Below are positions 930-39,747 of a stretch of DNA of 39,747 nt, in pieces. The notes under the pieces are model-generated. The model saw only the letters and a list, made by a program, of their open reading frames with translations, was not told where the DNA came from and searched no databases. The number at the start of each line of letters is the position of its first letter. Positions within the stretch are counted from its first letter, which is position 1. This stretch comes from Escherichia phage Vec13, in the sequence record NC_048023.1. One strand, given 5' to 3'. Made by a program: the position numbers and the translations under genes.

Positions 930-1208
930 ATGAGACTGAACAAAGCTACAGCAGAAGCCTTTCGCAAGGAGCTTGAATCAAGATTATTGCGTGGAGTGAA
1001 GGAAGAAGCCGCGCGTTATAAAGAGAACGGTCTAACGTTCAAGCGCTTCATGTGGGATTGCTATCGTGGAGTGGGCCATAAGAAGTCGCAGGATATAATC
1101 ATCAGTAACAATACGGAAGTGCAAGTGGTGGGAGGATATATGACTAACGTGAAGGATTCACACATAGAGACCATGCTCAAGAATGCACTTAAAGATGTAG
1201 CCTACTAG
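930..1208 (+). CDS. Hypothetical early protein (92 aa), upstream of ocr
   Basis: ORF with SD aagagga 7 nt upstream of ATG; preceded by RNase III-like hairpin; no homolog recognised. Confidence 0.6.
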   Translation: MRLNKATAEAFRKELESRLLRGVKEEAARYKENGLTFKRFMWDCYRGVGHKKSQDIIISNNTEVQVVGGYMTNVKDSHIETMLKNALKDVAY

Positions 1209-1260
1209 TGATTAACTACAGGTCGTTAGACTGATAGCGGCCTGACTGATAGTCACTAAC
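1207..1260 (+). promoter_or_regulatory. RNase III-like processing hairpin (stem-bubble-stem)
   Basis: Inner stem caggtcg/cggcctg (one G-U), outer stem gtgatta/tagtcac; near-identical copy at 1524..1577. Confidence 0.5.
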
Positions 1261-1267
1261 TTAACGG

Positions 1268-6063: not shown

Positions 6064-6086
6064 AAGAGGTTAACCTAAACTATCAC
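6064..6086 (+). promoter_or_regulatory. Phage RNAP promoter (phi1.1-like; candidate primary replication origin region)
   Basis: cctaaACTATCACTATAGGatt; in T7 the phi1.1A/B promoters with adjacent AT-rich DNA form the primary origin. Confidence 0.8.
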
Positions 6087-6128
6087 TATAGGATTAGACT
6101 CAAGGTCATGACTCAAAGTCGTGGCCTT
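6084..6128 (+). promoter_or_regulatory. RNase III-like hairpin (conserved tagactcaaggtcat ... gtggccttcatgatta)
   Basis: One of three near-identical elements (also 13374..13418, 36491..36538); aaggtca pairs with tggcctt with a G-U. Confidence 0.55.
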
Positions 6129-6169
6129 CATGATTAACCCTAAATAAACACTACTGGAGATTTAACCGT

Positions 6170-13436: not shown

Positions 13437-15608
13437 ATGTTTGACCTTAAGAGTATCTGGGGTTCTGACATCGAGACCAACGGTCTCCTTGATACAGTCT
13501 CCCAGTTTCACTGTGGGGTCCTGATTAACGCCGAGTCGAATGAGACCCTTAAGTATGGGGTAGCTCCGATGGTCGGTATCGTCGGCGGCTTCAAAGAGTA
13601 TGTTCATAAAGTGGAAGAGATTGCCGCATCACCTGATGGTATGCTGGTATTCCATAACGGTATCAACTATGACGTCCCGGCTATAGACAAGCTGAAGCGT
13701 TTGTACTTTGGGAAACGCTTTAACTTCCCGAAACATAAGATGATTGATACCTTGGTGCTGGGTCGCTTGATGTATCCAAACATTAAGTTCTCAGACATGG
13801 GCGCGGTGAAAGCTGGTCGTCTGCCACCTAAGATGATGGGACGCCAGTCTCTTGAGGCTTGGGGCTATCGTCTCGGTGAGATGAAAGGTGAGTACAAACA
13901 CGATTACGTTGCCAAGTGCAAGGCTGAAGGTATCGAATATAAGGCTGGGGACGAATGGTTGTTCCCGTCTCAGGAGATGCTGGACTATAACGTTCAAGAC
14001 GTTGTGGTCACACTGGCGTTGTTCAAGAAGTTCCTGACTGACAAGTATTACTTCCAGTCTGAACAGTTCGCTTTCGACCAGATTTATGCGTTGCGTCTGG
14101 AACATGATGCTGCGTGGACCTGTGCGAAGATGGAGCGTAACGGCTATCCGATGAACACCGAGATGGTCGAAGGCTTATATCGTGAACTCACTGTCAAACG
14201 TGCAGAGTTGCTGGACAAGCTGCGTTCGACTTTCGGTAGCTGGTACGCACCAAAGGGAGGCAAGGAGTTCTTCAGGCATCCACGGACAGGTAAGGACCTT
14301 CCGAAGTATCCGAGGGTCGTGTATCCTAAGGTCGGTGGCATCTTTAAGAAGCCGAAGAACAAAGCTCAACGCTTATGTCTTGAACCTTGTGAACGCGATA
14401 CGCGAGACACGATGGAAGGAGCACCATTCACGCCAATCACTTACGTTGAGTTTAATCCGGGAAGCGGAGACCACTTAGCGAAAGTCCTGATGGAGCGTGG
14501 CTGGGAGCCTGTTGACTTCACTGACACCGGGAAACCTGTAGTCGATGACGAGACGTTGGAACACGTTAAGTTACCAGACGCAGAGGCTCAGGCTTGCGTA
14601 GAGCTGGTCCGTGAGTATCTGGTAGTCCAGAAGCGCATCGGACAGGCTGCTGAAGGTAAGAACGCATGGTTGAAACTTGTAGGTCCAGACGGACGTATGC
14701 ACGGTTCAATCAACCCTTGTGGAGCAGTAACCGGACGTGCGACCCATAGTTCACCAAACATGGCTCAGGTCCCGGCTAACGGTGCTCCGTATGGTGAGAC
14801 TTGCCGTGGTGCTTTCGGTGCAGCGTGGAACAAGAAGGATGGCAAGCCAGACCCTTGGATTCAAGTAGGTGTGGATGCTTCAGGTCTTGAGCTTCGTTGT
14901 CTGGGGAACCGTGCGTCTCCGTTCGATGGTGGCGAATACGCGAAGACTGTGGTCGAAGGTGACATCCACTGGGCCAATGCGGTCAACGCAGGGTTAGCAC
15001 CTAACGTCCCACGCAATAAGTCCAGCCACGACCATGATGCTTTCCGTAACAACGCTAAGACGTTCATCTATGCGTTCCTATATGGTGCAGGGGCCGCGAA
15101 GATTGGACTGATAGTTGGCGGTGGTAAGAAGGAAGGTTCAGCTCTCATGAAGAAATTCATTGAGGGTACACCAGCCATCAAGGACCTCAGGGAAGCTGTC
15201 AGTAATACGTTAATCTCGGACTCTAAGTGGGTAGACGGTGAGAACATCGTGAAGTGGAAACGCCGCTGGCTGAAGGGTCTGGATGGTCGTCGCATTCACA
15301 TCCGGTCCCCGCACTCAGCACTTAACGCCCTACTTCAGGGTGACGGTGCGGTGGTCTGTAAGCACTGGATAGTCGAGACCGAGCGTATGCTTGAAGAAGC
15401 TGGCTATGTCCACGGCTGGGAAGGTGACTTTGCGTACATGGCTTGGGTTCACGACGAATTGCAAATTGCGTGTCGTACTCAGGAGATTGCCGAAGAAGTC
15501 GTCAAGATTGCTCAACTTGCTATGCGTAAGGTGGGCGAGTTCTATAACTTTAAATGCGTCCTTGACACCGAAGGGAAGATTGGACCAACGTGGAAGGAGT
15601 GCCATTGA
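13437..15608 (+). CDS. DNA polymerase (T7 gp5 homolog, family A with 3-5 exonuclease)
   Basis: 723 aa; DIETNGLL exo motif, LEAWGYRLGEMKGEY, GAVTGRATHSSPNMAQVP, GVDASGLELRCL, RDNAKTFIYAFLYGAG, AYMAWVHDELQ match T7 DNAP. Confidence 0.98.
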   Translation: MFDLKSIWGSDIETNGLLDTVSQFHCGVLINAESNETLKYGVAPMVGIVGGFKEYVHKVEEIAASPDGMLVFHNGINYDVPAIDKLKRLYFGKRFNFPKHKMIDTLVLGRLMYPNIKFSDMGAVKAGRLPPKMMGRQSLEAWGYRLGEMKGEYKHDYVAKCKAEGIEYKAGDEWLFPSQEMLDYNVQDVVVTLALFKKFLTDKYYFQSEQFAFDQIYALRLEHDAAWTCAKMERNGYPMNTEMVEGLYRELTVKRAELLDKLRSTFGSWYAPKGGKEFFRHPRTGKDLPKYPRVVYPKVGGIFKKPKNKAQRLCLEPCERDTRDTMEGAPFTPITYVEFNPGSGDHLAKVLMERGWEPVDFTDTGKPVVDDETLEHVKLPDAEAQACVELVREYLVVQKRIGQAAEGKNAWLKLVGPDGRMHGSINPCGAVTGRATHSSPNMAQVPANGAPYGETCRGAFGAAWNKKDGKPDPWIQVGVDASGLELRCLGNRASPFDGGEYAKTVVEGDIHWANAVNAGLAPNVPRNKSSHDHDAFRNNAKTFIYAFLYGAGAAKIGLIVGGGKKEGSALMKKFIEGTPAIKDLREAVSNTLISDSKWVDGENIVKWKRRWLKGLDGRRIHIRSPHSALNALLQGDGAVVCKHWIVETERMLEEAGYVHGWEGDFAYMAWVHDELQIACRTQEIAEEVVKIAQLAMRKVGEFYNFKCVLDTEGKIGPTWKECH

Positions 15609-17399: not shown

Positions 17400-17525
17400 T
17401 TTACTGGGCCGGACTTCTGGCCATTTACTGCATGTATAAGTGGTTCGGGTCTAACAACCGTCCTAAACACTGAGTCTAACCGATAGTCATATCCTATCAA
17501 TCCAACAGTCATCCATAGGTGAAAT

Positions 17526-17548
17526 ACTAAACTATCACTATAGGGACT
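17526..17548 (+). promoter_or_regulatory. Phage RNAP promoter (phi6.5-like)
   Basis: ctaaACTATCACTATAGGGact; +1 G at 17543. Confidence 0.85.
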
Positions 17549-18125: not shown

Positions 18126-18530
18126 ATGCTACCATATCTCAACTCACGCGAAGGTCGCCACATGTGCGCTTGTCGCCTCTGGGAAGACGGGCAGTCTAAC
18201 TTCAAGTCATTCGAGGACTTCAAGGCTCATACTTACCGTATGGCTGACGAGTTCGACGGTGAAGAGTACACAATCTACGATGTCTCAGGTCAACCAGTAG
18301 CGTATCTCTACATGCTGGCTACCACATCTTGGCACCGACCGACTCCCGGTCTTGACCTTTCAATCGTCGCTATTCGTCGTGACTCGCAGTCCTCCCGCAA
18401 GGTTCTTGAGACTGTCAGGCACATCATAGACGAAGAGTGCAAGCGTTGGGGTCTTGGCTGGTATTCTCGTGTCAAGCATGTTTCCGGGTCGGTAGACATC
18501 GTAACAACTAAGGAGATTAATCGTGGGTAA
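18126..18530 (+). CDS. gp7-like protein (134 aa; assignment by position)
   Basis: ORF in synteny with T7 gene 7; no motif recognised. Confidence 0.5.
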   Translation: MLPYLNSREGRHMCACRLWEDGQSNFKSFEDFKAHTYRMADEFDGEEYTIYDVSGQPVAYLYMLATTSWHRPTPGLDLSIVAIRRDSQSSRKVLETVRHIIDEECKRWGLGWYSRVKHVSGSVDIVTTKEINRG

Positions 18531-18771
18531 ATCAATCAGTAAGGCATTCAAGAAAGTGGTGAAAAGTACGCTAGGGACCGTTGGTCTTGGCTCTGATGAC
18601 GCACCTAAGGTTGTTGAGGCTCAGACCCCAGCAGCACCAGTGGAAGTACCGAACGACAAAGTGGAGGATGTGGATACTGAAACAACCGCATCTGACGAGA
18701 AGAAAGTGAAGCGTTCCGGTAAGCGTAACCTTCAGGTCTCTCGCACCTCTGGTGGCGGTATTTCTATATGA
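18523..18771 (+). CDS. gp7.3-like tail/host-range protein (GTG start)
   Basis: 82 aa; MGKSISKAFKKVVKS basic N-terminus and C-terminal SRTSGGGISI match T7 gp7.3 (MGKKVKKAVKK ... SSGGGINI); SD aaggag. Confidence 0.8.
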   Translation: MGKSISKAFKKVVKSTLGTVGLGSDDAPKVVEAQTPAAPVEVPNDKVEDVDTETTASDEKKVKRSGKRNLQVSRTSGGGISI

Positions 18772-19160
18772 CACCATGTCATGAATGGGGTGGATACTGC
18801 ACCAAGGATGGCTACGGTGAAACTAGGGTAGATGGGCGCAAGGTTCGCGTTCATCGCCTAGAGTGGACGAAACACTACGGACCCATTCCGCATGACAAAG
18901 TGGTTCGCCACAAGTGTGACAACCCTAAGTGTTTTAATATTGAACACCTAGAGTTAGGGACAACACAGGATAACACGGCTGACAGAGTGTCTCGTGGTCG
19001 AAGCGCCAAAGGAGAGGATAACGGTAACGCCGTCCTCACTATTGATATTGTTAATGAGATTCGCGAAAGTAGCATGTCTCAGCGCAAAATAGCGAAGACC
19101 TATGGAGTGTCACAGTCTACCGTATCTAAAATCAAACGCAATGTAACGTGGAGGTCATAA
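18768..19160 (+). CDS. HNH homing endonuclease with C-terminal helix-turn-helix
   Basis: 130 aa; VHRLEW...VRHKCDNPKCFNIEHLELGTTQDN is an HNH nuclease signature; C-terminal SQRKIAKTYGVSQSTVSKI is HTH-like. Confidence 0.85.
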   Translation: MTPCHEWGGYCTKDGYGETRVDGRKVRVHRLEWTKHYGPIPHDKVVRHKCDNPKCFNIEHLELGTTQDNTADRVSRGRSAKGEDNGNAVLTIDIVNEIRESSMSQRKIAKTYGVSQSTVSKIKRNVTWRS

Positions 19161-19161
19161 C

Positions 19162-20730
19162 ATGGCAGAACGTGAAGGATTTGCGGCTGAAGGCGCTAAG
19201 TCAGTTTATGATAGATTGAAGAACGGACGACAGCCTTACGAGACCCGCGCACAGAACTGCGCTGCCGTGACCATCCCCTCGCTATTTCCCAAGGAGTCCG
19301 ACAACTCGTCTACGGAATACGTGACGCCGTGGCAAGCTGTAGGTGCTCGCTGCTTGAACAACTTGGCTGCAAAGCTGATGTTGGCGTTATTCCCTCAGTC
19401 ACCGTGGATGCGACTGACAGTCTCCGAATATGAGGCAAAGACCTTGAGTCAGGACTCAGAGGCTGCTGCTCGTGTTGACGAGGGGCTTGCTATGGTCGAG
19501 CGTGTGTTGATGGCCTACATGGAGACCAACAGTTTCCGTGTGCCATTGTTCGAAGCTCTGAAGCAGCTTATAGTCTCCGGTAACTGTCTGCTATACATTC
19601 CAGAGCCTGAACAGGGAACCTACAGTCCTATGCGAATGTACCGCTTAGTGTCCTACGTTGTTCAACGTGATGCTTTCGGTAACATCTTACAGATTGTGAC
19701 TCTCGACAAGGTAGCGTTTAGTGCTCTACCGGAAGACGTGAAGTCTCAACTCAACGCAGACGACTATGAGCCTGACACCGAGCTTGAAGTGTATACGCAC
19801 ATCTACCGTCAGGACGACGAGTATCTGCGCTACGAGGAAGTGGAAGGCATTGAGGTGACAGGGACCGATGGTTCCTACCCGCTGACTGCATGTCCATACA
19901 TCCCGGTACGAATGGTTCGACTGGATGGTGAAGACTACGGTCGTTCTTACTGCGAGGAGTATCTGGGAGACCTGAACTCGCTGGAGACGATTACAGAAGC
20001 TATCACTAAAATGGCTAAGGTAGCCTCCAAGGTGATTGGCCTCGTTAACCCGAACGGTATCACGCAACCTCGACGTCTGAACAAGGCGGCTACAGGTGAG
20101 TTCGTGGCTGGTCGCGTTGAGGACATCAACTTCCTGCAACTGACGAAAGGTCAGGACTTTACGATTGCCAAGTCGGTGGCTGATGCTATCGAGCAACGTT
20201 TAGGCTGGGCCTTCCTTCTTAATAGTGCTGTTCAGCGTAATGCCGAGCGAGTCACTGCTGAAGAGATTCGTTATGTTGCTGGCGAACTGGAGGCGACCTT
20301 AGGTGGCGTGTACTCAGTGCAGTCACAAGAGCTTCAGTTACCTATCGTCCGTGTGCTGATGAACCAGCTTCAGTCTGCTGGAATGATTCCTGACCTTCCG
20401 AAAGAAGCGGTAGAGCCTACTGTCTCCACTGGTCTGGAAGCGTTAGGTCGTGGTCAGGACTTAGAGAAGCTAACTCAGGCAGTCAACATGATGACCGGGC
20501 TCCAGCCTCTGCAACAGGACCCAGACATTAACTTGCCGACCCTGAAGCTGCGACTGCTGAACGCTCTGGGTATAGACACCGCTGGTCTACTCCTCACGCA
20601 GGACGAGAAGATTCAGCGCATGGCTGAACAGTCGTCTCAACAGGCAGTAGTCCAAGGTGCTGGTGCTGCTGGTGCCAACATGGGCGCTGCTGTAGGTCAG
20701 GGAGCTGGTGAGGACATGGCTCAAGCCTAA
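19162..20730 (+). CDS. Portal (head-to-tail connector) protein (T7 gp8 homolog)
   Basis: 522 aa; AEGAKSVYDRLKNGRQPYETRAQNCA, TPWQAVGARCLNNLAAKLMLALFP, GLVNPNGITQPRRL, RVTAEEIRYVAGELE match T7 gp8. Confidence 0.98.
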   Translation: MAEREGFAAEGAKSVYDRLKNGRQPYETRAQNCAAVTIPSLFPKESDNSSTEYVTPWQAVGARCLNNLAAKLMLALFPQSPWMRLTVSEYEAKTLSQDSEAAARVDEGLAMVERVLMAYMETNSFRVPLFEALKQLIVSGNCLLYIPEPEQGTYSPMRMYRLVSYVVQRDAFGNILQIVTLDKVAFSALPEDVKSQLNADDYEPDTELEVYTHIYRQDDEYLRYEEVEGIEVTGTDGSYPLTACPYIPVRMVRLDGEDYGRSYCEEYLGDLNSLETITEAITKMAKVASKVIGLVNPNGITQPRRLNKAATGEFVAGRVEDINFLQLTKGQDFTIAKSVADAIEQRLGWAFLLNSAVQRNAERVTAEEIRYVAGELEATLGGVYSVQSQELQLPIVRVLMNQLQSAGMIPDLPKEAVEPTVSTGLEALGRGQDLEKLTQAVNMMTGLQPLQQDPDINLPTLKLRLLNALGIDTAGLLLTQDEKIQRMAEQSSQQAVVQGAGAAGANMGAAVGQGAGEDMAQA

Positions 20731-20748
20731 ACTATCACTATAGGAACA
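20726..20748 (+). promoter_or_regulatory. Phage RNAP promoter (phi9-like)
   Basis: cctaaACTATCACTATAGGaac; +1 G at 20743. Confidence 0.85.
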
Positions 20749-33846: not shown

Positions 33847-35877
33847 ATGTCCACGATTACACAATTCCCTTCAGGAAGCACTCAGTACAGGATTGAGTTC
33901 GACTACCTAGCCAGAACGTTTGTTGTTGTTACGCTGGTGAATAGCTCTAACCCTACCCTGAACCGTGTACTGGAAGTTGGTCGAGATTACCGATTCCTTA
34001 ATCCAACGATGATTGAGATGTTGGTTGACCAATCAGGTTTCGACATCGTTCGCATTCACCGTCAGACTGGAACTGACTTAGTGGTAGACTTCAGGAATGG
34101 CTCAGTGTTGACAGCTAGTGACCTGACAAATTCAGAGCTTCAGGCTATCCATATTGCAGAAGAAGGTCGAGACCAAACGGTTGACTTAGCGAAGGAATAT
34201 GCCGATGCTGCTGGTAGCTCTGCTGGCAACGCTAAGGATAGCGAGGACGAAGCACGCCGAATCGCTGAGAGTATCAGGGCGGCTGGTCTAATTGGTTATA
34301 TTACCCGTCGCTCCTTCGAGAAAGGCTACAACGTTACAACATGGAGCGAGGTCCTGCTATGGGAAGAGGATGGTGATTATTACCGCTGGGATGGTACGCT
34401 TCCAAAGAACGTTCCTGCTGGTTCAACTCCTGAAACTTCCGGTGGGATTGGATTAGGTGCGTGGGTTAGTGTTGGTGATGCTGCTTTAAGAAGTCAGATT
34501 TCAAACCCGGAAGGGGCAATACTCTACCCAGAATTACAGATGGCGCGCTGGCGAGATGAGGGTGATGTTCGCGGATGGGGTGCTAAAGGTGATGGTTCTG
34601 CGGATGATACAGAGGCTTTCAAGGCAGCACTGGCAACAGGAAAGAATCTATATATCCCCGTTGGTATATACATCATTAAAGAGACTTTGTACTTTAAGAA
34701 CCAAGTTATTAAAGGTGGGGGAATATCTCCATCACCAAGTCTTGGTACAATCCTAGCAATCTCTCACAATGAAGCAGCTTTTAAGTATGACGTTAACTCT
34801 GGATACTCCATGGGTGGCTACTTAGGCGGTTTCTTCATTGATTATGGTGAGAACAAGCCAGACAACTATGGTGGTCGCAAAGGTATTGATATTGGTGATG
34901 CATCGCAGACAGCATGGCCTTCACAATTTATCATTGAGAACATCATAGTACGTGGTGCGTACTTTGGTATTCATGACGTGACAGGGGCTTTTCAGTATAC
35001 CATGCGTAACGTATTGGCGATTAATTGCTGGGAAGGTTTCCGTAAGCATATTGGTACTACAGTCCTAATGGATACATGCTACGCACTTAATTGTTATCAG
35101 GCGTTCAATTTTGCAAACGTGTACAACATGACTATGAACAATTGTGCAATGGACGGCTGTAATGATATACAAGGTCTACAGGCTTTTGATATTAACAACT
35201 GTAAAGGTATGGTAATAAATGGCATGTACAGCGAGAACTGTGAGATTCATCATAATGGACATGCCTCTATATATATTCATGGGGACTCAACAGTAACACT
35301 TAACGGATATGCACTACATTCCCACAAAGTTCTGGCTAGTTCTGGGGAGGCTTACTTCTTACGAGCACATGAAAGTTCTCGCGTTACTGTTGATGGTATC
35401 TTCTTCGGGGAAGACCTGACGTCTACTGCTGTATTCATGTACCCAGTCCTGTCTTCTGGGGATGCTAGAGTTAAGCTTGGAACTACTAGATTGAAGTTGT
35501 GGACTGGTGCTACGGGTGGGGCGTCACTGGCTGCACTAGGTAACAGTTTGATTGAGTATGACAACACAGTCTTTGTTCCAACAGTCACGGTCGGATGGTG
35601 TAGCAACAACGGAGTTGTAGCCAAAGGTACTCTTGCAGTTAACACTACGCTTGAACCAGGTGCTGACCTGAATGCCGGTAATATTACCCTCACTGGTGAC
35701 TACAAGCCAACTAAGGGGGATGTGCTTGTGTATGGTGCTACCTTTGATGTTAAGTCATGTTCAATTATTCTCAAGCCAATAGGGGAGAATTTATGTAATG
35801 TGTACATTAAGAACTTAAGTGCAGGTGGTAGTGCTACTCTTCTTGGTGACTTGATGGTACAGGCCATCCGACGCTAG
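33847..35877 (+). CDS. Tailspike/tail fiber: T7 gp17-like N-terminal adaptor plus pectate-lyase-like beta-helix (putative polysaccharide depolymerase)
   Basis: 676 aa; N-terminus FDYLARTFVVVTLV, DYRF, IHIAEE match T7 gp17; from about residue 240 WGAKGDGSADDTEAFKAAL and repetitive G/N/C-rich stretches typical of pectate lyase superfamily tailspikes. Confidence 0.9.
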   Translation: MSTITQFPSGSTQYRIEFDYLARTFVVVTLVNSSNPTLNRVLEVGRDYRFLNPTMIEMLVDQSGFDIVRIHRQTGTDLVVDFRNGSVLTASDLTNSELQAIHIAEEGRDQTVDLAKEYADAAGSSAGNAKDSEDEARRIAESIRAAGLIGYITRRSFEKGYNVTTWSEVLLWEEDGDYYRWDGTLPKNVPAGSTPETSGGIGLGAWVSVGDAALRSQISNPEGAILYPELQMARWRDEGDVRGWGAKGDGSADDTEAFKAALATGKNLYIPVGIYIIKETLYFKNQVIKGGGISPSPSLGTILAISHNEAAFKYDVNSGYSMGGYLGGFFIDYGENKPDNYGGRKGIDIGDASQTAWPSQFIIENIIVRGAYFGIHDVTGAFQYTMRNVLAINCWEGFRKHIGTTVLMDTCYALNCYQAFNFANVYNMTMNNCAMDGCNDIQGLQAFDINNCKGMVINGMYSENCEIHHNGHASIYIHGDSTVTLNGYALHSHKVLASSGEAYFLRAHESSRVTVDGIFFGEDLTSTAVFMYPVLSSGDARVKLGTTRLKLWTGATGGASLAALGNSLIEYDNTVFVPTVTVGWCSNNGVVAKGTLAVNTTLEPGADLNAGNITLTGDYKPTKGDVLVYGATFDVKSCSIILKPIGENLCNVYIKNLSAGGSATLLGDLMVQAIRR

Positions 35878-36035
35878 AAATGTACGCATGGATTCGCTGA
35901 GGTGGTTATCCATGAAGAGGGTGAGGAGTGGGGTGTAGATGTTAGAAGGTTGTGGAGGTAGAGGCTAACTACACGCTAACCAACGTAGGGTAACAACTTT
36001 GGGTCACGGACGACCCGCTTTAAACTGGAGGTTTT

Positions 36036-36230
36036 ATGATTGAGTTAGACTTCAAGAATGAGGTCCTTAAAGCCTCTCCTATAGTCGGGACCGCTGCGGC
36101 TGATGGTGCCAGTCGGTTCTTCTTCGGGCTCACACTTAACGAATGGTTCTACGTTGCAGCTATCGCGTACACCGTTGTCCAGATTGGTGTGCTAGTCTAC
36201 AAAACGATTAAAGGAGGTGGTAAAACATGA
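36036..36230 (+). CDS. Holin (T7 gp17.5 homolog)
   Basis: 64 aa; AAPIVGT, FFFGLTLNEWFYVAAIAYTVVQIG match T7 gp17.5. Confidence 0.9.
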   Translation: MIELDFKNEVLKASPIVGTAAADGASRFFFGLTLNEWFYVAAIAYTVVQIGVLVYKTIKGGGKT

Positions 36231-36490
36231 CGCAGATGGACTTAGAGAAGTTCCTCTTGATGCTAGATACTGAACGTGCTCGACTCATGCTGCAAGACCT
36301 GCGGGATGACACTAAGCGTTCACCTCAGCTTTACAACGCCATTGAGAAGCTACTGGCTCGTCACAACTTCGTGCTAAGCAAGGTGTCTGTCGACGAGAAG
36401 ACTCTGGCTGATATGGAGGCCCTGAACGCAGAGTACGATAAGGTGCTCTCGGCTACGGAAGATAATGACACCGGGTATGGTGTTCAATAA
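36227..36490 (+). CDS. Terminase small subunit (T7 gp18 homolog)
   Basis: 87 aa ORF immediately upstream of Rz-like and TerL in T7 order; SD aaaggagg. Confidence 0.8.
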   Translation: MTQMDLEKFLLMLDTERARLMLQDLRDDTKRSPQLYNAIEKLLARHNFVLSKVSVDEKTLADMEALNAEYDKVLSATEDNDTGYGVQ

Positions 36491-36538
36491 GTGTTAGACT
36501 CAAGGTCATTACTATATGTAGTGGCCTTTATGGTTAAC
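36491..36538 (+). promoter_or_regulatory. RNase III-like hairpin (conserved element copy 3, R18.5-like)
   Basis: gtgttagactcaaggtcat ... gtggcctttatggttaacac; outer arms gtgtta/taacac complementary. Confidence 0.55.
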
Positions 36539-36591
36539 ACTAACTAGTGGAGGAGACTCTACGTGAAATCTGATAAACCGGGAGGGCAACT

Positions 36592-37041
36592 ATGCTCGAA
36601 TTTTTAAAGAGAGCGGCTCCGTGGTTACTTGCAGCAGTGATGTTTGCTGGTGGCTACCACACCGCTAACAATAAGTGGGAGGCTAAGGTCAATGAAGAAT
36701 ACACCTCGAATCTTAAGGCATCGGAAGATACAAGGCTTGCTGTCCAAGCTGAAGTCAACAAAGTGTCCAAACGGTTTCAGGACGAAATGTCCTCGCTGGA
36801 AGGCAGCACTGATAGGATTATTGCTGACCTTCAGTCTGACAATAAGCGGCTGCGCATCCGAGTCAAACCAACGAGTGGAACCACGCAAAGTGACGGTCGA
36901 TGCGTCATTGATGGTTACGCCGAACTTGACGAACGAGATGCTAAACGTCTTATCGCCATCGGAGTGAAAGGAGACAAGTGGATTAAGGCCCTTCAGGACA
37001 CTGTGAGAGCCTTGCAGCAAGATAAGGAGGTGACGCATTGA
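36592..37041 (+). CDS. Rz-like i-spanin (T7 gp18.5 homolog)
   Basis: 149 aa; MLEFL start, N-terminal [27 protein letters not shown] and DERDAKRL match T7 gp18.5. Confidence 0.9.
36689..36967 (+). CDS. Rz1-like o-spanin lipoprotein embedded in +1 frame of Rz (T7 gp18.7 homolog)
   Basis: [25 protein letters not shown] matches T7 Rz1 [25 protein letters not shown]; lipobox LTISGC; start at internal ATG (track ORF 36644..36967). Confidence 0.8.
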   Translation, partial: SMKNTPRILRHRKIQGLLSKLKSTKCPNGFRTKCPRWKAALIGLLLTFSLTISGCASESNQRVEPRKVTVDASLMVTPNLTNEMLNVLSPSE

Positions 37042-38801
37042 GTAAAGATTTAGTGGCGCGTCAGGCGCTAATGACTGCCCGTATGAAGGCAGACTTCGTG
37101 TTCTTCCTGTTCGTCCTGTGGAAAGCTCTGTCACTACCAGTCCCGACTCGCTGTCAGATTGACATGGCGAAGAAACTATCGGCTGGGGACAACAGGCGTT
37201 TCATCCTACAGGCGTTCCGTGGTATCGGGAAGTCATTCATTACGTGCGCATTCGTGGTATGGAAACTGTGGAACAACCCAGACTTGAAGTTCATGATTGT
37301 GTCGGCCTCAAAGGAACGAGCCGATGCAAACTCCATCTTCATCAAGCGAATCATCGACCTCATGCCTCAGCTTCGGGAACTCAAACCTAAGCAGGGGCAG
37401 CGAGATGCGGTTATCAGCTTCGACGTTGGACCAGCCAAGCCAGACCACTCACCTTCGGTTAAGTCCGTTGGTATCACTGGTCAGTTGACTGGTAGTCGTG
37501 CTGACATCCTGATTGCCGATGACGTGGAGGTTCCGAACAACTCAGCGACTCAGGCTGCCCGAGACCGTCTGTCAGAGCTTGTGAAAGAGTTCGACGCTAT
37601 CCTGAAGCCGGGAGGTACAATCATCTATCTGGGTACTCCTCAGAACGAGATGACCTTGTATCGTGAGCTGGAAGGCCGTGGGTACACCACTACTATCTGG
37701 CCTGCTCGTTATCCACGCGACAGGAAGGACTGGCAGTCTTACGGCGACCGTCTGGCTCCAATGCTTCAGGCAGAGCTTGAAGAGGACCCTGAGTCATTCT
37801 ACTGGCGTCCGACTGATGAAGTACGCTTCGATGATACGGACCTTAAGGAACGTGAGCTGTCATATGGTAAGGCTGGCTTCGCTCTACAGTTCATGCTTAA
37901 CCCGAACCTTAGTGATGCCGAGAAGTACCCACTGAAGCTCCGTGACCTTATCGTAGCGGACTTGGACCCAGCGTCCAGCCCAATGGTCTACCAATGGTTA
38001 CCGAACCCTCAGAACAAGCGTGAGGACGTTCCTAACGTTGGACTCATGGGTGACTCGTACCACACGTATCAGACTGTAGGTTCTGCCTTCAGCTCATACA
38101 CCCAGAAGATTCTGGTCATTGACCCTAGTGGTCGTGGTAAGGATGAAACTGGCTATGCGGTACTGTACCAGCTTAATGGCTACATCTTCGCTATGGAAGT
38201 TGGTGGTATGCGTGGTGGTTATGAAGACTCTACGCTTGAAGCACTGGCTAAGATTGGTCGTAAGTGGAAGGTCAACGAATACGTCATTGAGGGTAACTTC
38301 GGTGATGGTATGTACCTTGAGCTATTCAAGCCTGTAGCGGCCCGTATCCATCCTGCGGCTGTAACTGAAGTGAAGAGTAAGGGTCAGAAAGAACTCCGCA
38401 TCTGTGACGTTCTGGAGCCTATCATGGGGTCTCACCGACTTATCGTTAACGCTGCTGCTATCGTTCAAGACTACCAGTCAGCCTCTGATAAGGATGGTGT
38501 TCGTAACCCTATCTACTCTCTCTTCTACCAGATGACACGTATATCTCGTGAACGTGGAGCCTTGGCACACGATGACCGACTTGATGCTCTGGCTATCGGT
38601 GTACAGTTCTTCGTGGAGTCTATGGCTAAGGATGCCAACAAGGGCGAACGTGAAGTCACTGAGGAGTGGCTGGAGGAACAGATGGAGAACCCACGGAAAG
38701 GCTTCGAGTCCATCCACACTGAGTTCTGGGACAATGGGGTCCGGGTAACTCACGATGTGGACGACGTGCTGGGACTAGGGTCCTACGTTACGTTCCACTA
38801 G
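37038..38801 (+). CDS. Terminase large subunit (T7 gp19 homolog), TTG start
   Basis: 587 aa; [118 protein letters not shown] match T7 gp19; SD aaggagg 7 nt before TTG. Confidence 0.97.
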
Positions 38802-39568: not shown

Positions 39569-39747
39569 TCTCACAGTTCAAGAACCTCAAGTCTCCCCAT
39601 AGGCCCTCTTTAAGTCCAGACCAAAGGCCCTACCCCAGTCTATCATAAGGTTAGACCGATGGTCAAGACTTCAGGTCAACGATAGGTGGTGACTATGGCT
39701 TAGGGAAGGACGATAGGTGGTGACTATAGGTCTGTCTTTGAGTCTCT
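39569..39747. repeat. Right direct terminal repeat (DTR), identical to 1..179
   Basis: Exact 179-nt repeat of the window start. Confidence 0.9.

Follow-up and report, generated by a model that had tools for sequence, protein, structure and literature searches.

What kind of gene occupies the interval between gene 7.3 and the portal gene in Escherichia phage Vec13, is this gene mobile, and where in a recipient genome would its product act? These questions were addressed in a window that comprises the whole 39,747-nt sequence of record NC_048023.1, the complete genome of a Kayfunavirus (K1F-like) that possesses 179-nt direct terminal repeats and shares 88–95% nucleotide identity with deposited relatives. 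A preliminary description had designated the ORF in this interval as an HNH homing endonuclease gene with a C-terminal helix-turn-helix (HTH), located at a hotspot for such genes in T7-like phages and associated with localized gene conversion and with marker exclusion during co-infection. Gene 7.7 in T7-like phages is widely held to be a homing endonuclease gene. The kind of gene is already known in this instance also: Enterobacter phage vB_VIPECLMC06 (PQ411323) has a protein, XIU00065.1, that matches the Vec13 protein at 100% identity and is annotated "HNH endonuclease". New here are population-genomic evidence that the Vec13 version of the gene, termed allele 1, is or recently was mobile, and a specific prediction of its target. 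The reading that we favor, at a probability of roughly three in four, is that the gene belongs to the T7 gene 7.7 family and specifies an HNH homing endonuclease that is free-standing, without an intron, and has its predicted target in the 5′-terminal part of portal gene 8.

Location and identity of the gene

The plus strand at 18768–19160 bears an ATG-to-TAA ORF with a product of 130 amino acids, which is exactly the ORF that was described initially, and the motifs quoted for it are present. The ORF sits between gene 7.3 upstream and portal gene 8 downstream, as originally placed, the two neighbors being recognized by matches to PF11653 and PF12236, respectively. T7-type gp6.5, gp6.7, and gp7 are encoded further upstream, and the terminase genes are found at 36227–38801, 17 kb from the HNH gene. 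Searches of the Vec13 genome with tblastn revealed no paralog of the HNH protein, and no other homing endonuclease-like gene came to light when ORFs from variable regions of the genome were scanned against Pfam. Judged from its sequence, the ORF is a free-standing HNH homing endonuclease gene of the gene 7.7 family with an I-HmuI-like product, and all of the defining features of this class that can be tested computationally were observed. The features of the locus are collected in Table 1.

Table 1. Features of the gene 7.7 slot and its surroundings in the Vec13 genome
Feature	Coordinates	Strand	Basis
Phage RNA polymerase promoter, phi6.5-like, nearest upstream of the HNH gene	17519..17544	+	Repeat family D2, consensus CTAAACTATCACTATAGG
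Gene 7.3, tail/virion assembly protein; upstream neighbor without polymorphism linked to the HNH gene	18523..18771	+	PF11653; upstream, within-carrier diversity equals between-group diversity
HNH gene with a 130-aa product, classed by sequence as free-standing homing endonuclease gene; allele 1 at the gene 7.7 slot of Kayfunavirus	18768..19160	+	ORF, HNH_3, PHROG HNH families, identical annotated protein
ATGA overlap of HNH start and gp7.3 stop; left insert boundary	18768..18771	+	Sequence
Predicted HNH_3/His-Me finger nuclease core, residues 27–70	18846..18977	+	Pfam match, conservation, I-HmuI alignment, model
Predicted flexible linker between nuclease and DNA-binding domain, residues 76–91	18993..19040	+	pLDDT 52–67, secondary structure not predicted
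Predicted C-terminal HTH DNA-binding domain, residues 92–123	19041..19136	+	HTH_psq, weak HTH matches, AlphaFold2 helices, I-HmuI alignment
GGAGG ribosome-binding site of portal gene 8, inside the last HNH codons (W-R); right insert boundary	19150..19154	+	Sequence
Gene 8, portal (head-tail connector); downstream neighbor and putative target gene	19162..20730	+	PF12236, E 1e-97
Tract linked to the HNH gene at the 5′ end of gene 8; nearly invariant in 17/17 carriers, ~15% diverged from empty-site phages	19162..19291	+	Putative co-conversion tract, predicted target inside
Cluster A, four fixed synonymous differences (19167, 19179, 19182, 19185)	19167..19185	+	Carrier versus empty-site alignment
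Cluster B, seven synonymous differences in 25 nt (nine codons)	19260..19284	+	Candidate recognition/cleavage site, resistant form

Domain organization and predicted fold

The HNH assignment proposed at the outset was upheld by profile searches. Residues 27–70 matched the Pfam family HNH_3 (PF13392) with an E value of 3.4e-17 (62.2 bits against a gathering cutoff of 24.8), and the protein matched PHROG 59 and PHROG 6254, both described as 'HNH endonuclease', with E values of 4e-35 and 9e-31, respectively. The motif VHRLEW comprises residues 28–33 and RHKCDNPKCFNIEHLELGTTQDN comprises residues 47–69. The preliminary description had included HRLEW in the HNH signature; the motif is present, but His-29 within it is not a conserved catalytic residue and the predicted general base instead is His-48 (codon 18909–18911), which is part of RHKCDN. 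Conservation was assessed in an alignment of 45–46 homologs taken from a search of 5.8 billion proteins. Residues His-48, Cys-50, Asp-51, Cys-55, Leu-61, Gly-64, Asn-69, and Asp-72 are invariant among these sequences, and Cys-4, Arg-47, Lys-49, Asn-57, and His-60 are nearly so. The HNH core is intact on alignment and no loss of catalytic residues that might have contradicted the assignment was seen. Asn-69 is predicted to be a metal ligand, and Cys-50, Cys-55, and His-60, along with Cys-4, probably form a zinc site.

When a profile of the homolog alignment was compared with the Protein Data Bank (PDB), the top match was I-HmuI (1U3E; E 4e-4), a nicking homing endonuclease of the HNH type that is encoded in an intron of phage SPO1. 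The alignment spans from before the HNH region through the C-terminal HTH at ~18% sequence identity, and pairs His-48 with His-75 and Asn-69 with Asn-96 of I-HmuI, so that both the general-base histidine and the metal-binding asparagine coincide. Arg-47 is at the position of the I-HmuI metal ligand Asp-74 and, because of this replacement, the exact metal coordination is uncertain. A PDB search with the single sequence returned only spurious weak matches, to ribosomal protein L26, and the family profile was required to reach I-HmuI.

The AlphaFold2 model of the protein has a mean pLDDT of 84.5, with values of ~90 in the beta-beta-alpha region. The modeled elements are, in order, an N-terminal beta hairpin, a beta-beta-alpha core (strands 45–48 and 61–64, helix 66–75), a disordered linker, and a three-helix bundle. 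As modeled, the core has the arrangement of the beta-beta-alpha-metal fold. A Foldseek comparison of the model with the PDB ranked I-HmuI first (probability 1.0), followed by the zinc-bearing His-Me finger proteins I-PpoI and Smad MH1; the latter matches fit the conserved Cys/His cluster, which is absent from I-HmuI. The C-terminal HTH noted previously was recovered by several routes: HTH_psq scored 21.2 bits against a cutoff of 20.4, many other HTH families matched weakly within residues 92–126, the model places helices at 92–100, 105–112, and 116–123, and the I-HmuI alignment extends through the HTH of that protein. The predicted protein and I-HmuI thus share an N-terminal beta element, the HNH region, a linker, and a C-terminal HTH in the same order. 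Unlike I-HmuI, which has 174 residues and is intron-encoded, the Vec13 protein has 130 residues, is free-standing, and possesses the putative zinc cluster of Cys-4, Cys-50, Cys-55, and His-60.

Insertion slot and expression signals

Alignment of the junctions with those of related phages showed that a 394-nt insert with exact boundaries stands in place of a 15-nt spacer between genes 7.3 and 8. The empty-site sequence is TCTAT-TTAAGGAGGTGACTA-ATGGC, and the wider context in K1F and other empty-site phages is ...GGTATTTCTAT-TTAAGGAGGTGACTA-ATGGCTGAA... At the left boundary the start codon of the HNH gene overlaps the stop codon of gene 7.3, and the resulting ATATGACA junction recurs in two sister alleles (alleles 2 and 3, below) and in gene 7.7 of phage 13a. 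At the right boundary all alleles have a common 3′ end (...ACNTGGAGG...). This HNH-type 3′ end, with the portal ribosome-binding site, also is retained in Seyj3-1 and SD6, in which the endonuclease gene has decayed.

The phage promoter that follows the phi6.5-like element listed in Table 1 is of phi9 type and is located at 20719–20744; neither a promoter nor a terminator was seen between the two. A scan for sigma-70 promoters and terminators around the gene found nothing that exceeded shuffled expectation. Having no promoter of its own, the HNH gene must be transcribed late together with genes 6.5–8. The overlap of start and stop codons suggests that translation of the HNH protein probably is coupled to that of gp7.3.

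Distribution of the gene and its sister alleles

Allele 1 is present in five of ~250 related phage records (nucleotide identity at least 97%), and ~90% of these records have the 15-nt spacer at the slot instead of an HNH gene. An exact-protein look-up in independent ENA/Logan metagenome and SRA assemblies identified 11 further carriers, every one of which has the gene in the same slot; together with the six carriers of the alignment described below, these make 17 carriers. The sporadic presence of the gene and the precise, conserved boundaries of the insert are characteristics of free-standing homing endonuclease genes. Two other alleles occupy the identical slot. Allele 2, which specifies 136 amino acids, is found in ST31, Pipis, GA2A, Ro45lw, and Penshu1; allele 3, which specifies 138 amino acids, is found in KKP_3263, RDN8.1, EFA-1, CR44b, and R1, and the CR44b copy is annotated "7.7: predicted homing endonuclease". 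The allele 1 protein shares 35–37% amino acid identity with the 136-residue protein and 48% with the 138-residue protein. Decay at the slot also is documented: Seyj3-1 retains an 85-nt remnant of the 136-residue allele, Monomax has a similar piece, and the slot of SD6 is nearly empty with a 3′ end (GGAGGCACGTAG) of the endonuclease-bearing type as a footprint. No relative with more than 52% identity was obtained from a scan of IMG/VR.

The gene 7.7 proteins of T7 and 13a (Teseptimavirus, annotated as HNH endonucleases) resemble the Vec13 protein in length (130–131 amino acids) and are encoded in the same slot between genes 7.3 and 8. Global amino acid identity of the allele 1 protein is 66% to 13a gp7.7 and 45% to T7 gp7.7, and tblastn of the protein against T7 yielded 46% identity with an E value of 1e-30. 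Both genes share the start and end architecture of allele 1, with a terminal K-T-W-R the codons of which carry the ribosome-binding site of gene 8. T7 and 13a have backbones of another genus, and allele 1 is nearer to the 13a gene than to the other alleles of its own genus. The occupation of the 7.3/8 slot by three diverged Kayfunavirus HNH alleles, as well as by gene 7.7 in T7 and 13a, agrees with the earlier suggestion that the site is a homing endonuclease hotspot.

Linkage of the gene to the 5′ end of the portal gene

Carriers were compared with empty-site phages in a set that covered 20 isolate genomes or loci and 11 metagenome loci. Genome-wide identity to Vec13 was 88–94% for carriers and 92–95% for empty-site phages, and the carriers are not a clade genome-wide. 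Phage VIPECLMC06 is the most distant carrier overall (88%), yet its HNH gene is 99.5% identical. The allele 1 genes of different carriers typically differ at 0–3 of 393 nt; larger values were recorded for the most divergent assembly copy (10–11 nt) and for isolate SEA1f (13 nt). Most carrier pairs have 0–1 differences in portal nucleotides +1 to 130, there are 27–72 differences per 900 nt in portal nucleotides 600–1500, and the carrier backbones differ by 3–8%. Conservation of the HNH gene and the adjacent flank therefore exceeds that of the backbone, as is typical of a free-standing homing endonuclease gene. A unit that consists of the HNH gene and ~130 nt from the start of the portal gene has spread recently and almost unchanged over diverged Kayfunavirus backbones.

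Linkage between the gene and its flanks was tested by alignment of 3.1 kb from six carriers with the corresponding sequence of six empty-site phages. Eleven fixed differences distinguished the two groups, all of which are synonymous changes at third codon positions within portal nucleotides 19167–19284; fixed differences upstream of the insert in this alignment numbered zero. Among 461 alternative 6/6 partitions of the same sequences the maximum was seven fixed differences and the mean was 0.04, such that none reached 11. Divergence between the groups was 0.154–0.158 in the first 180 portal nucleotides and ~0.04 beyond. Upstream of the insert, between-group divergence was the same as within-group diversity, and polymorphism among carriers starts 6–12 nt from the insert. 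The one-sided pattern was reproduced in the 11 additional carriers from assemblies. The localized gene conversion that previously was attributed to genes of this type finds support in this carrier-specific tract of ~130 nt in the adjacent portal gene.

Free-standing endonucleases cut away from their own genes with co-conversion of the flanks, and in intron-less homing the segment from the endonuclease gene to the cleavage site must be co-converted (PMC2988022). The near-identical unit of gene plus 130 nt, the diverged backbones on which it resides, and the one-sided tract match this prediction.

Candidate target within the tract

The fixed differences in the tract form two clusters. In cluster A, the A at 19167 is found only in allele 1 carriers, and the A at 19179 and T at 19182 are found in most phages with any HNH allele. 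Cluster B comprises positions 19260, 19266, 19269, 19272, 19278, 19281, and 19284, and reads TGCGCTGCCGTGACCATCCCCTCGCTA in carriers and TGTGCTGCTGTCACTATCCCGTCACTG in empty-site phages. The cluster is the distal edge of the shared tract and lies in a stretch that encodes QNCAAVTIPSLF, which is conserved even in T7. By virtue of this position and coding content, cluster B is the best candidate for a recognition site that would be resistant in carriers.

The carrier form of cluster B accompanies allele 1 in 17/17 cases. Its exclusivity was assessed with haplotype-specific 41-nt megablast queries. The carrier form was retrieved from 12 phage records and is strongly enriched where an endonuclease gene is or was present, since 11 of the 12 show an HNH allele, a remnant, or a footprint; the records include four allele 1 carriers, GA2A and Ro45lw with the 136-residue allele, KKP_3263 with the 138-residue allele, Seyj3-1 with its remnant, SD6 with its footprint, and CHX131, which is truly empty. 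The empty form was retrieved from 152 records, and ST31, Pipis, and CR44b have this form despite the presence of allele 2 or 3. The proposition that cluster B is exclusive to allele 1 was rejected, as the carrier form also occurs with alleles 2 and 3, with the footprint, and in one empty phage, and the assignment of the target accordingly was lowered to that of a candidate. The cluster B haplotype could be a hitch-hiking block instead of an immunized target or immunity determinant, and crossovers inside the tract may be suppressed by the high local divergence itself. In CHX131 the allele 1-type portal haplotype extends from ~19186 onward beside an empty slot; this phage could represent a naturally resistant ancestral background or a loss event. 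A short patch at 19194–19218 in Vec13 and T147P5 is identical to that in the empty phages LM33P1 and LI10P1, which shows that short-patch exchange does happen within the tract.

These observations bear on a different form of homing in which the enzyme would target the empty 7.3/8 junction (TCTAT-TTAAGGAGGTGACTA-ATGGCTGAACG...). The site would be split by insertion, and the ~130-nt tract would be a neutral co-conversion or hitch-hiking block. Enzymes of the intron-encoded I-HmuI type cleave no more than ~25 bp from the point of insertion and span ~25 bp near the insertion site (PMC2988022), and cluster A is only 5–23 nt into gene 8. The association of 19179 A and 19182 T with most phages that have any of the three alleles, and the non-exclusivity of cluster B, also are in keeping with a junction target. 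However, roughly two-sided tracts would be expected in this case, whereas linked polymorphism is absent upstream even 6–12 nt from the insert, and downstream linkage persists for ~130 nt in 17/17 carriers. A junction target is a less probable but serious alternative.

Within the preferred reading, which places the target near the start of gene 8, the dense block at 19260–19284 may tentatively be viewed as the immunized recognition site of the enzyme. Three diverged gene 7.7 alleles then would compete for one slot and each would supply the portal ribosome-binding site, so that loss would be feasible only by precise deletion that preserves this site, as in SD6 and Seyj3-1. If this interpretation is true, the slot would be a compact natural system for homing endonuclease turnover, target immunity, and partial 'addiction' in T7-like phages.

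Alternative roles for the gene

The gene alternatively might be kept mainly for a benefit that is independent of homing, for example as a DNA-end-binding anti-defense factor or in interference competition, with mobility lost or unneeded. HNH homing endonucleases reportedly weaken GAPS4 defense without a need for catalysis, as assayed with bas24_0090 and T7 gp3.8 in a 2025 preprint in which a T7 mutant that lacks 2.8, 3.8, and 7.7 also was studied (10.1101/2025.09.07.674715), and the integrity of the ORF in 17/17 carriers would suit a gene that is retained for its benefit. However, gp7.7 is covered in the GAPS4 work only within the triple mutant (10.1101/2025.09.07.674715), more than 90% of close relatives have no gene whatever at the slot, and a near-identical unit of HNH gene plus 130 nt on diverged backbones is a signature of recent horizontal spread. 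Retention chiefly for such a benefit thus is considered unlikely. By analogy, a catalysis-independent anti-defense role like that of T7 gp3.8 is a possibility that is compatible with homing.

It is improbable that the ORF is an inactive, decaying endonuclease gene, or that it specifies a plain HTH DNA-binding protein, which is carried passively. Remnants of a sister allele do document decay at the slot, and the 27 nucleotide differences among allele 1 copies comprise 17 synonymous and 10 non-synonymous changes, which do not strongly demonstrate purifying selection. Nevertheless, the conserved catalytic and zinc residues are all intact, 17/17 copies of allele 1 are uninterrupted by stops or frameshifts, and the gene has diverged very little in comparison with the backbones, which points to recent spread and not to long neutral residence.

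An HNH protein of the HK97 gp74 type would be expected to be conserved in all related phages, to be encoded next to the terminase, and to be associated with cos-type packaging. A comparable packaging-associated role for the Vec13 protein as a terminase/portal cofactor, for which adjacency to the portal gene is the only pointer, is effectively refuted: ~90% of phages that otherwise are 95% identical do not have the gene, the terminase genes lie at a distance of 17 kb, the 179-nt terminal repeats denote T7-type packaging, HNH_3 is combined with an HTH as in proteins of the I-HmuI type, and gene 7.7 of T7 is nonessential (PMC12153263).

Proposed mechanism

On the reading that the protein is a homing endonuclease that targets the 5′ end of gene 8, it is envisaged to operate as follows. 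The gene would be transcribed late from the phi6.5-type promoter and translation would be coupled to that of gp7.3. During mixed infection the enzyme would bind the 5′ end of gene 8 in empty-slot phages, where it would nick or cut the DNA, most likely in the stretch at 19260–19284 that encodes QNCAAVTIPSLF. The recipient then would be repaired by recombination with the carrier genome and in this way would acquire the HNH gene along with the resistant portal sequence that lies in between. The carrier itself would be protected by the synonymous substitutions of the portal tract. Biochemical or cleavage data for any gene 7.7 protein were not found in the literature that was searched.

The added value of the analysis is modest. 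For a family without a mapped target, it provides a testable prediction that places the target within ~130 nt of the portal gene start and identifies both resistant and sensitive variants of this sequence. In phage engineering and the design of cocktails, a carrier that co-infects with K1F-like therapeutic phages may convert their 7.3/portal region.

Comparison with characterized systems

The closest characterized analog is the free-standing HNH endonuclease MobE of phage T4. The mobE gene has no promoter, is co-transcribed with upstream genes, and occupies an intergenic slot beside an essential gene; the enzyme nicks the 5′ region of the adjacent gene nrdB and the flank is co-converted (PMC2790892). 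The anatomy of the Vec13 locus matches this arrangement. The activity of MobE was mapped by experiment, whereas the target of the Vec13 protein is a prediction from comparative data. In addition, the C-terminal DNA-binding regions are different in the Mob proteins (PMC2988022), and the allele 1 protein has a predicted HTH.

The locus also resembles the homing endonuclease loci of ICP1-like phages, in which differing nuclease genes, some of which are ~30% identical, share a locus beside essential genes, where they mark the limits of genetic exchange (Barth et al., 2023, PMC10448857). Three alleles similarly occur at one slot in Kayfunavirus, with a sharp recombination boundary at its left edge. 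The ICP1-like loci belong to another phage group, however, and all three occupants of the Kayfunavirus slot are homologous HNH_3-HTH proteins.

Degradation of the Sister Allele and Empty Slots

The 7.3/8 slots, between gene 7.3 and portal gene 8, of Seyj3-1, Monomax, and SD6 are products of decay of the sister 136-aa allele, a diverged HNH gene that occupies the same position in other phages. The portal ribosome-binding site has been kept in all three genomes. The slot of CHX131 is truly empty and reads TTAAGGAGGTGATGA, and this is followed by a portal gene 5' end that from ~nt 25 of gene 8 is of the haplotype associated with allele 1, the 130-aa HNH homing endonuclease gene of the window. CHX131 may represent an ancestral background with natural resistance, or else the endonuclease gene may have been lost.

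Features located in the window and in related phages
Feature	Location	Description
Seyj3-1 remnant	L100, slot upstream of portal	85 nt, internal deletion
Monomax remnant	MN812686 4801-4877	resembles Seyj3-1 remnant
SD6 slot	L098 1399-1410	16-nt 'empty' slot with endonuclease-type 3' end GGAGGCACGTAG
SEA1f allele-1 copy	L009 18355-18747	TTG start, not ATG
Tailspike gene	window 33847-35877, especially 34200-36000	
Phage-RNA-polymerase promoter family	window 6067, 7747, 8844, 17519, 20719, 21707, 26494, 33770, 38889 (also 2968, 11199)	core CTAAACTATCACTATAGG
53-nt repeat	window 6094-6146 / 36494-36546	83% identity; intergenic DNA, both copies
57-nt repeat	window 1207-1263 / 1524-1580	95% identity; early region

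Variation among Allele-1 Carriers

Within the endonuclease-linked tract at the start of the portal gene, a short patch at 19194-19218 sets the window and T147P5 apart from the remaining 15 allele-1 carriers, and its sequence in both is identical to that of LM33P1 and LI10P1, phages with an empty slot. The patch is an apparent case of short-patch gene conversion. The allele-1 copy in SEA1f carries 13 nucleotide differences, but its reading frame nonetheless is intact.

The DNA polymerase gene of K1F is split by an intron that contains another HNH ORF (L010 12921-15690). Unlike its K1F counterpart, the polymerase gene of the window (13437-15608) is uninterrupted, and the gene in the 7.7 slot therefore is the sole homing-endonuclease-like gene found in this genome.

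Genome Organization and Tailspike Gene

The window is a complete linear genome of the T7 type, with identical direct terminal repeats of 179 nt at 1-179 and 39569-39747. The tailspike gene brings together an N-terminus of the T7 tail-fiber kind, a Tail_spike_N domain, and a beta-helix resembling pectate lyase. As nucleotide similarity to the distal part was found in none of the 11 Kayfunavirus genomes compared, this part is an exchanged host-range (capsule depolymerase) module. The 6094-6146 copy of the 53-nt repeat is located directly downstream of the promoter at 6067.
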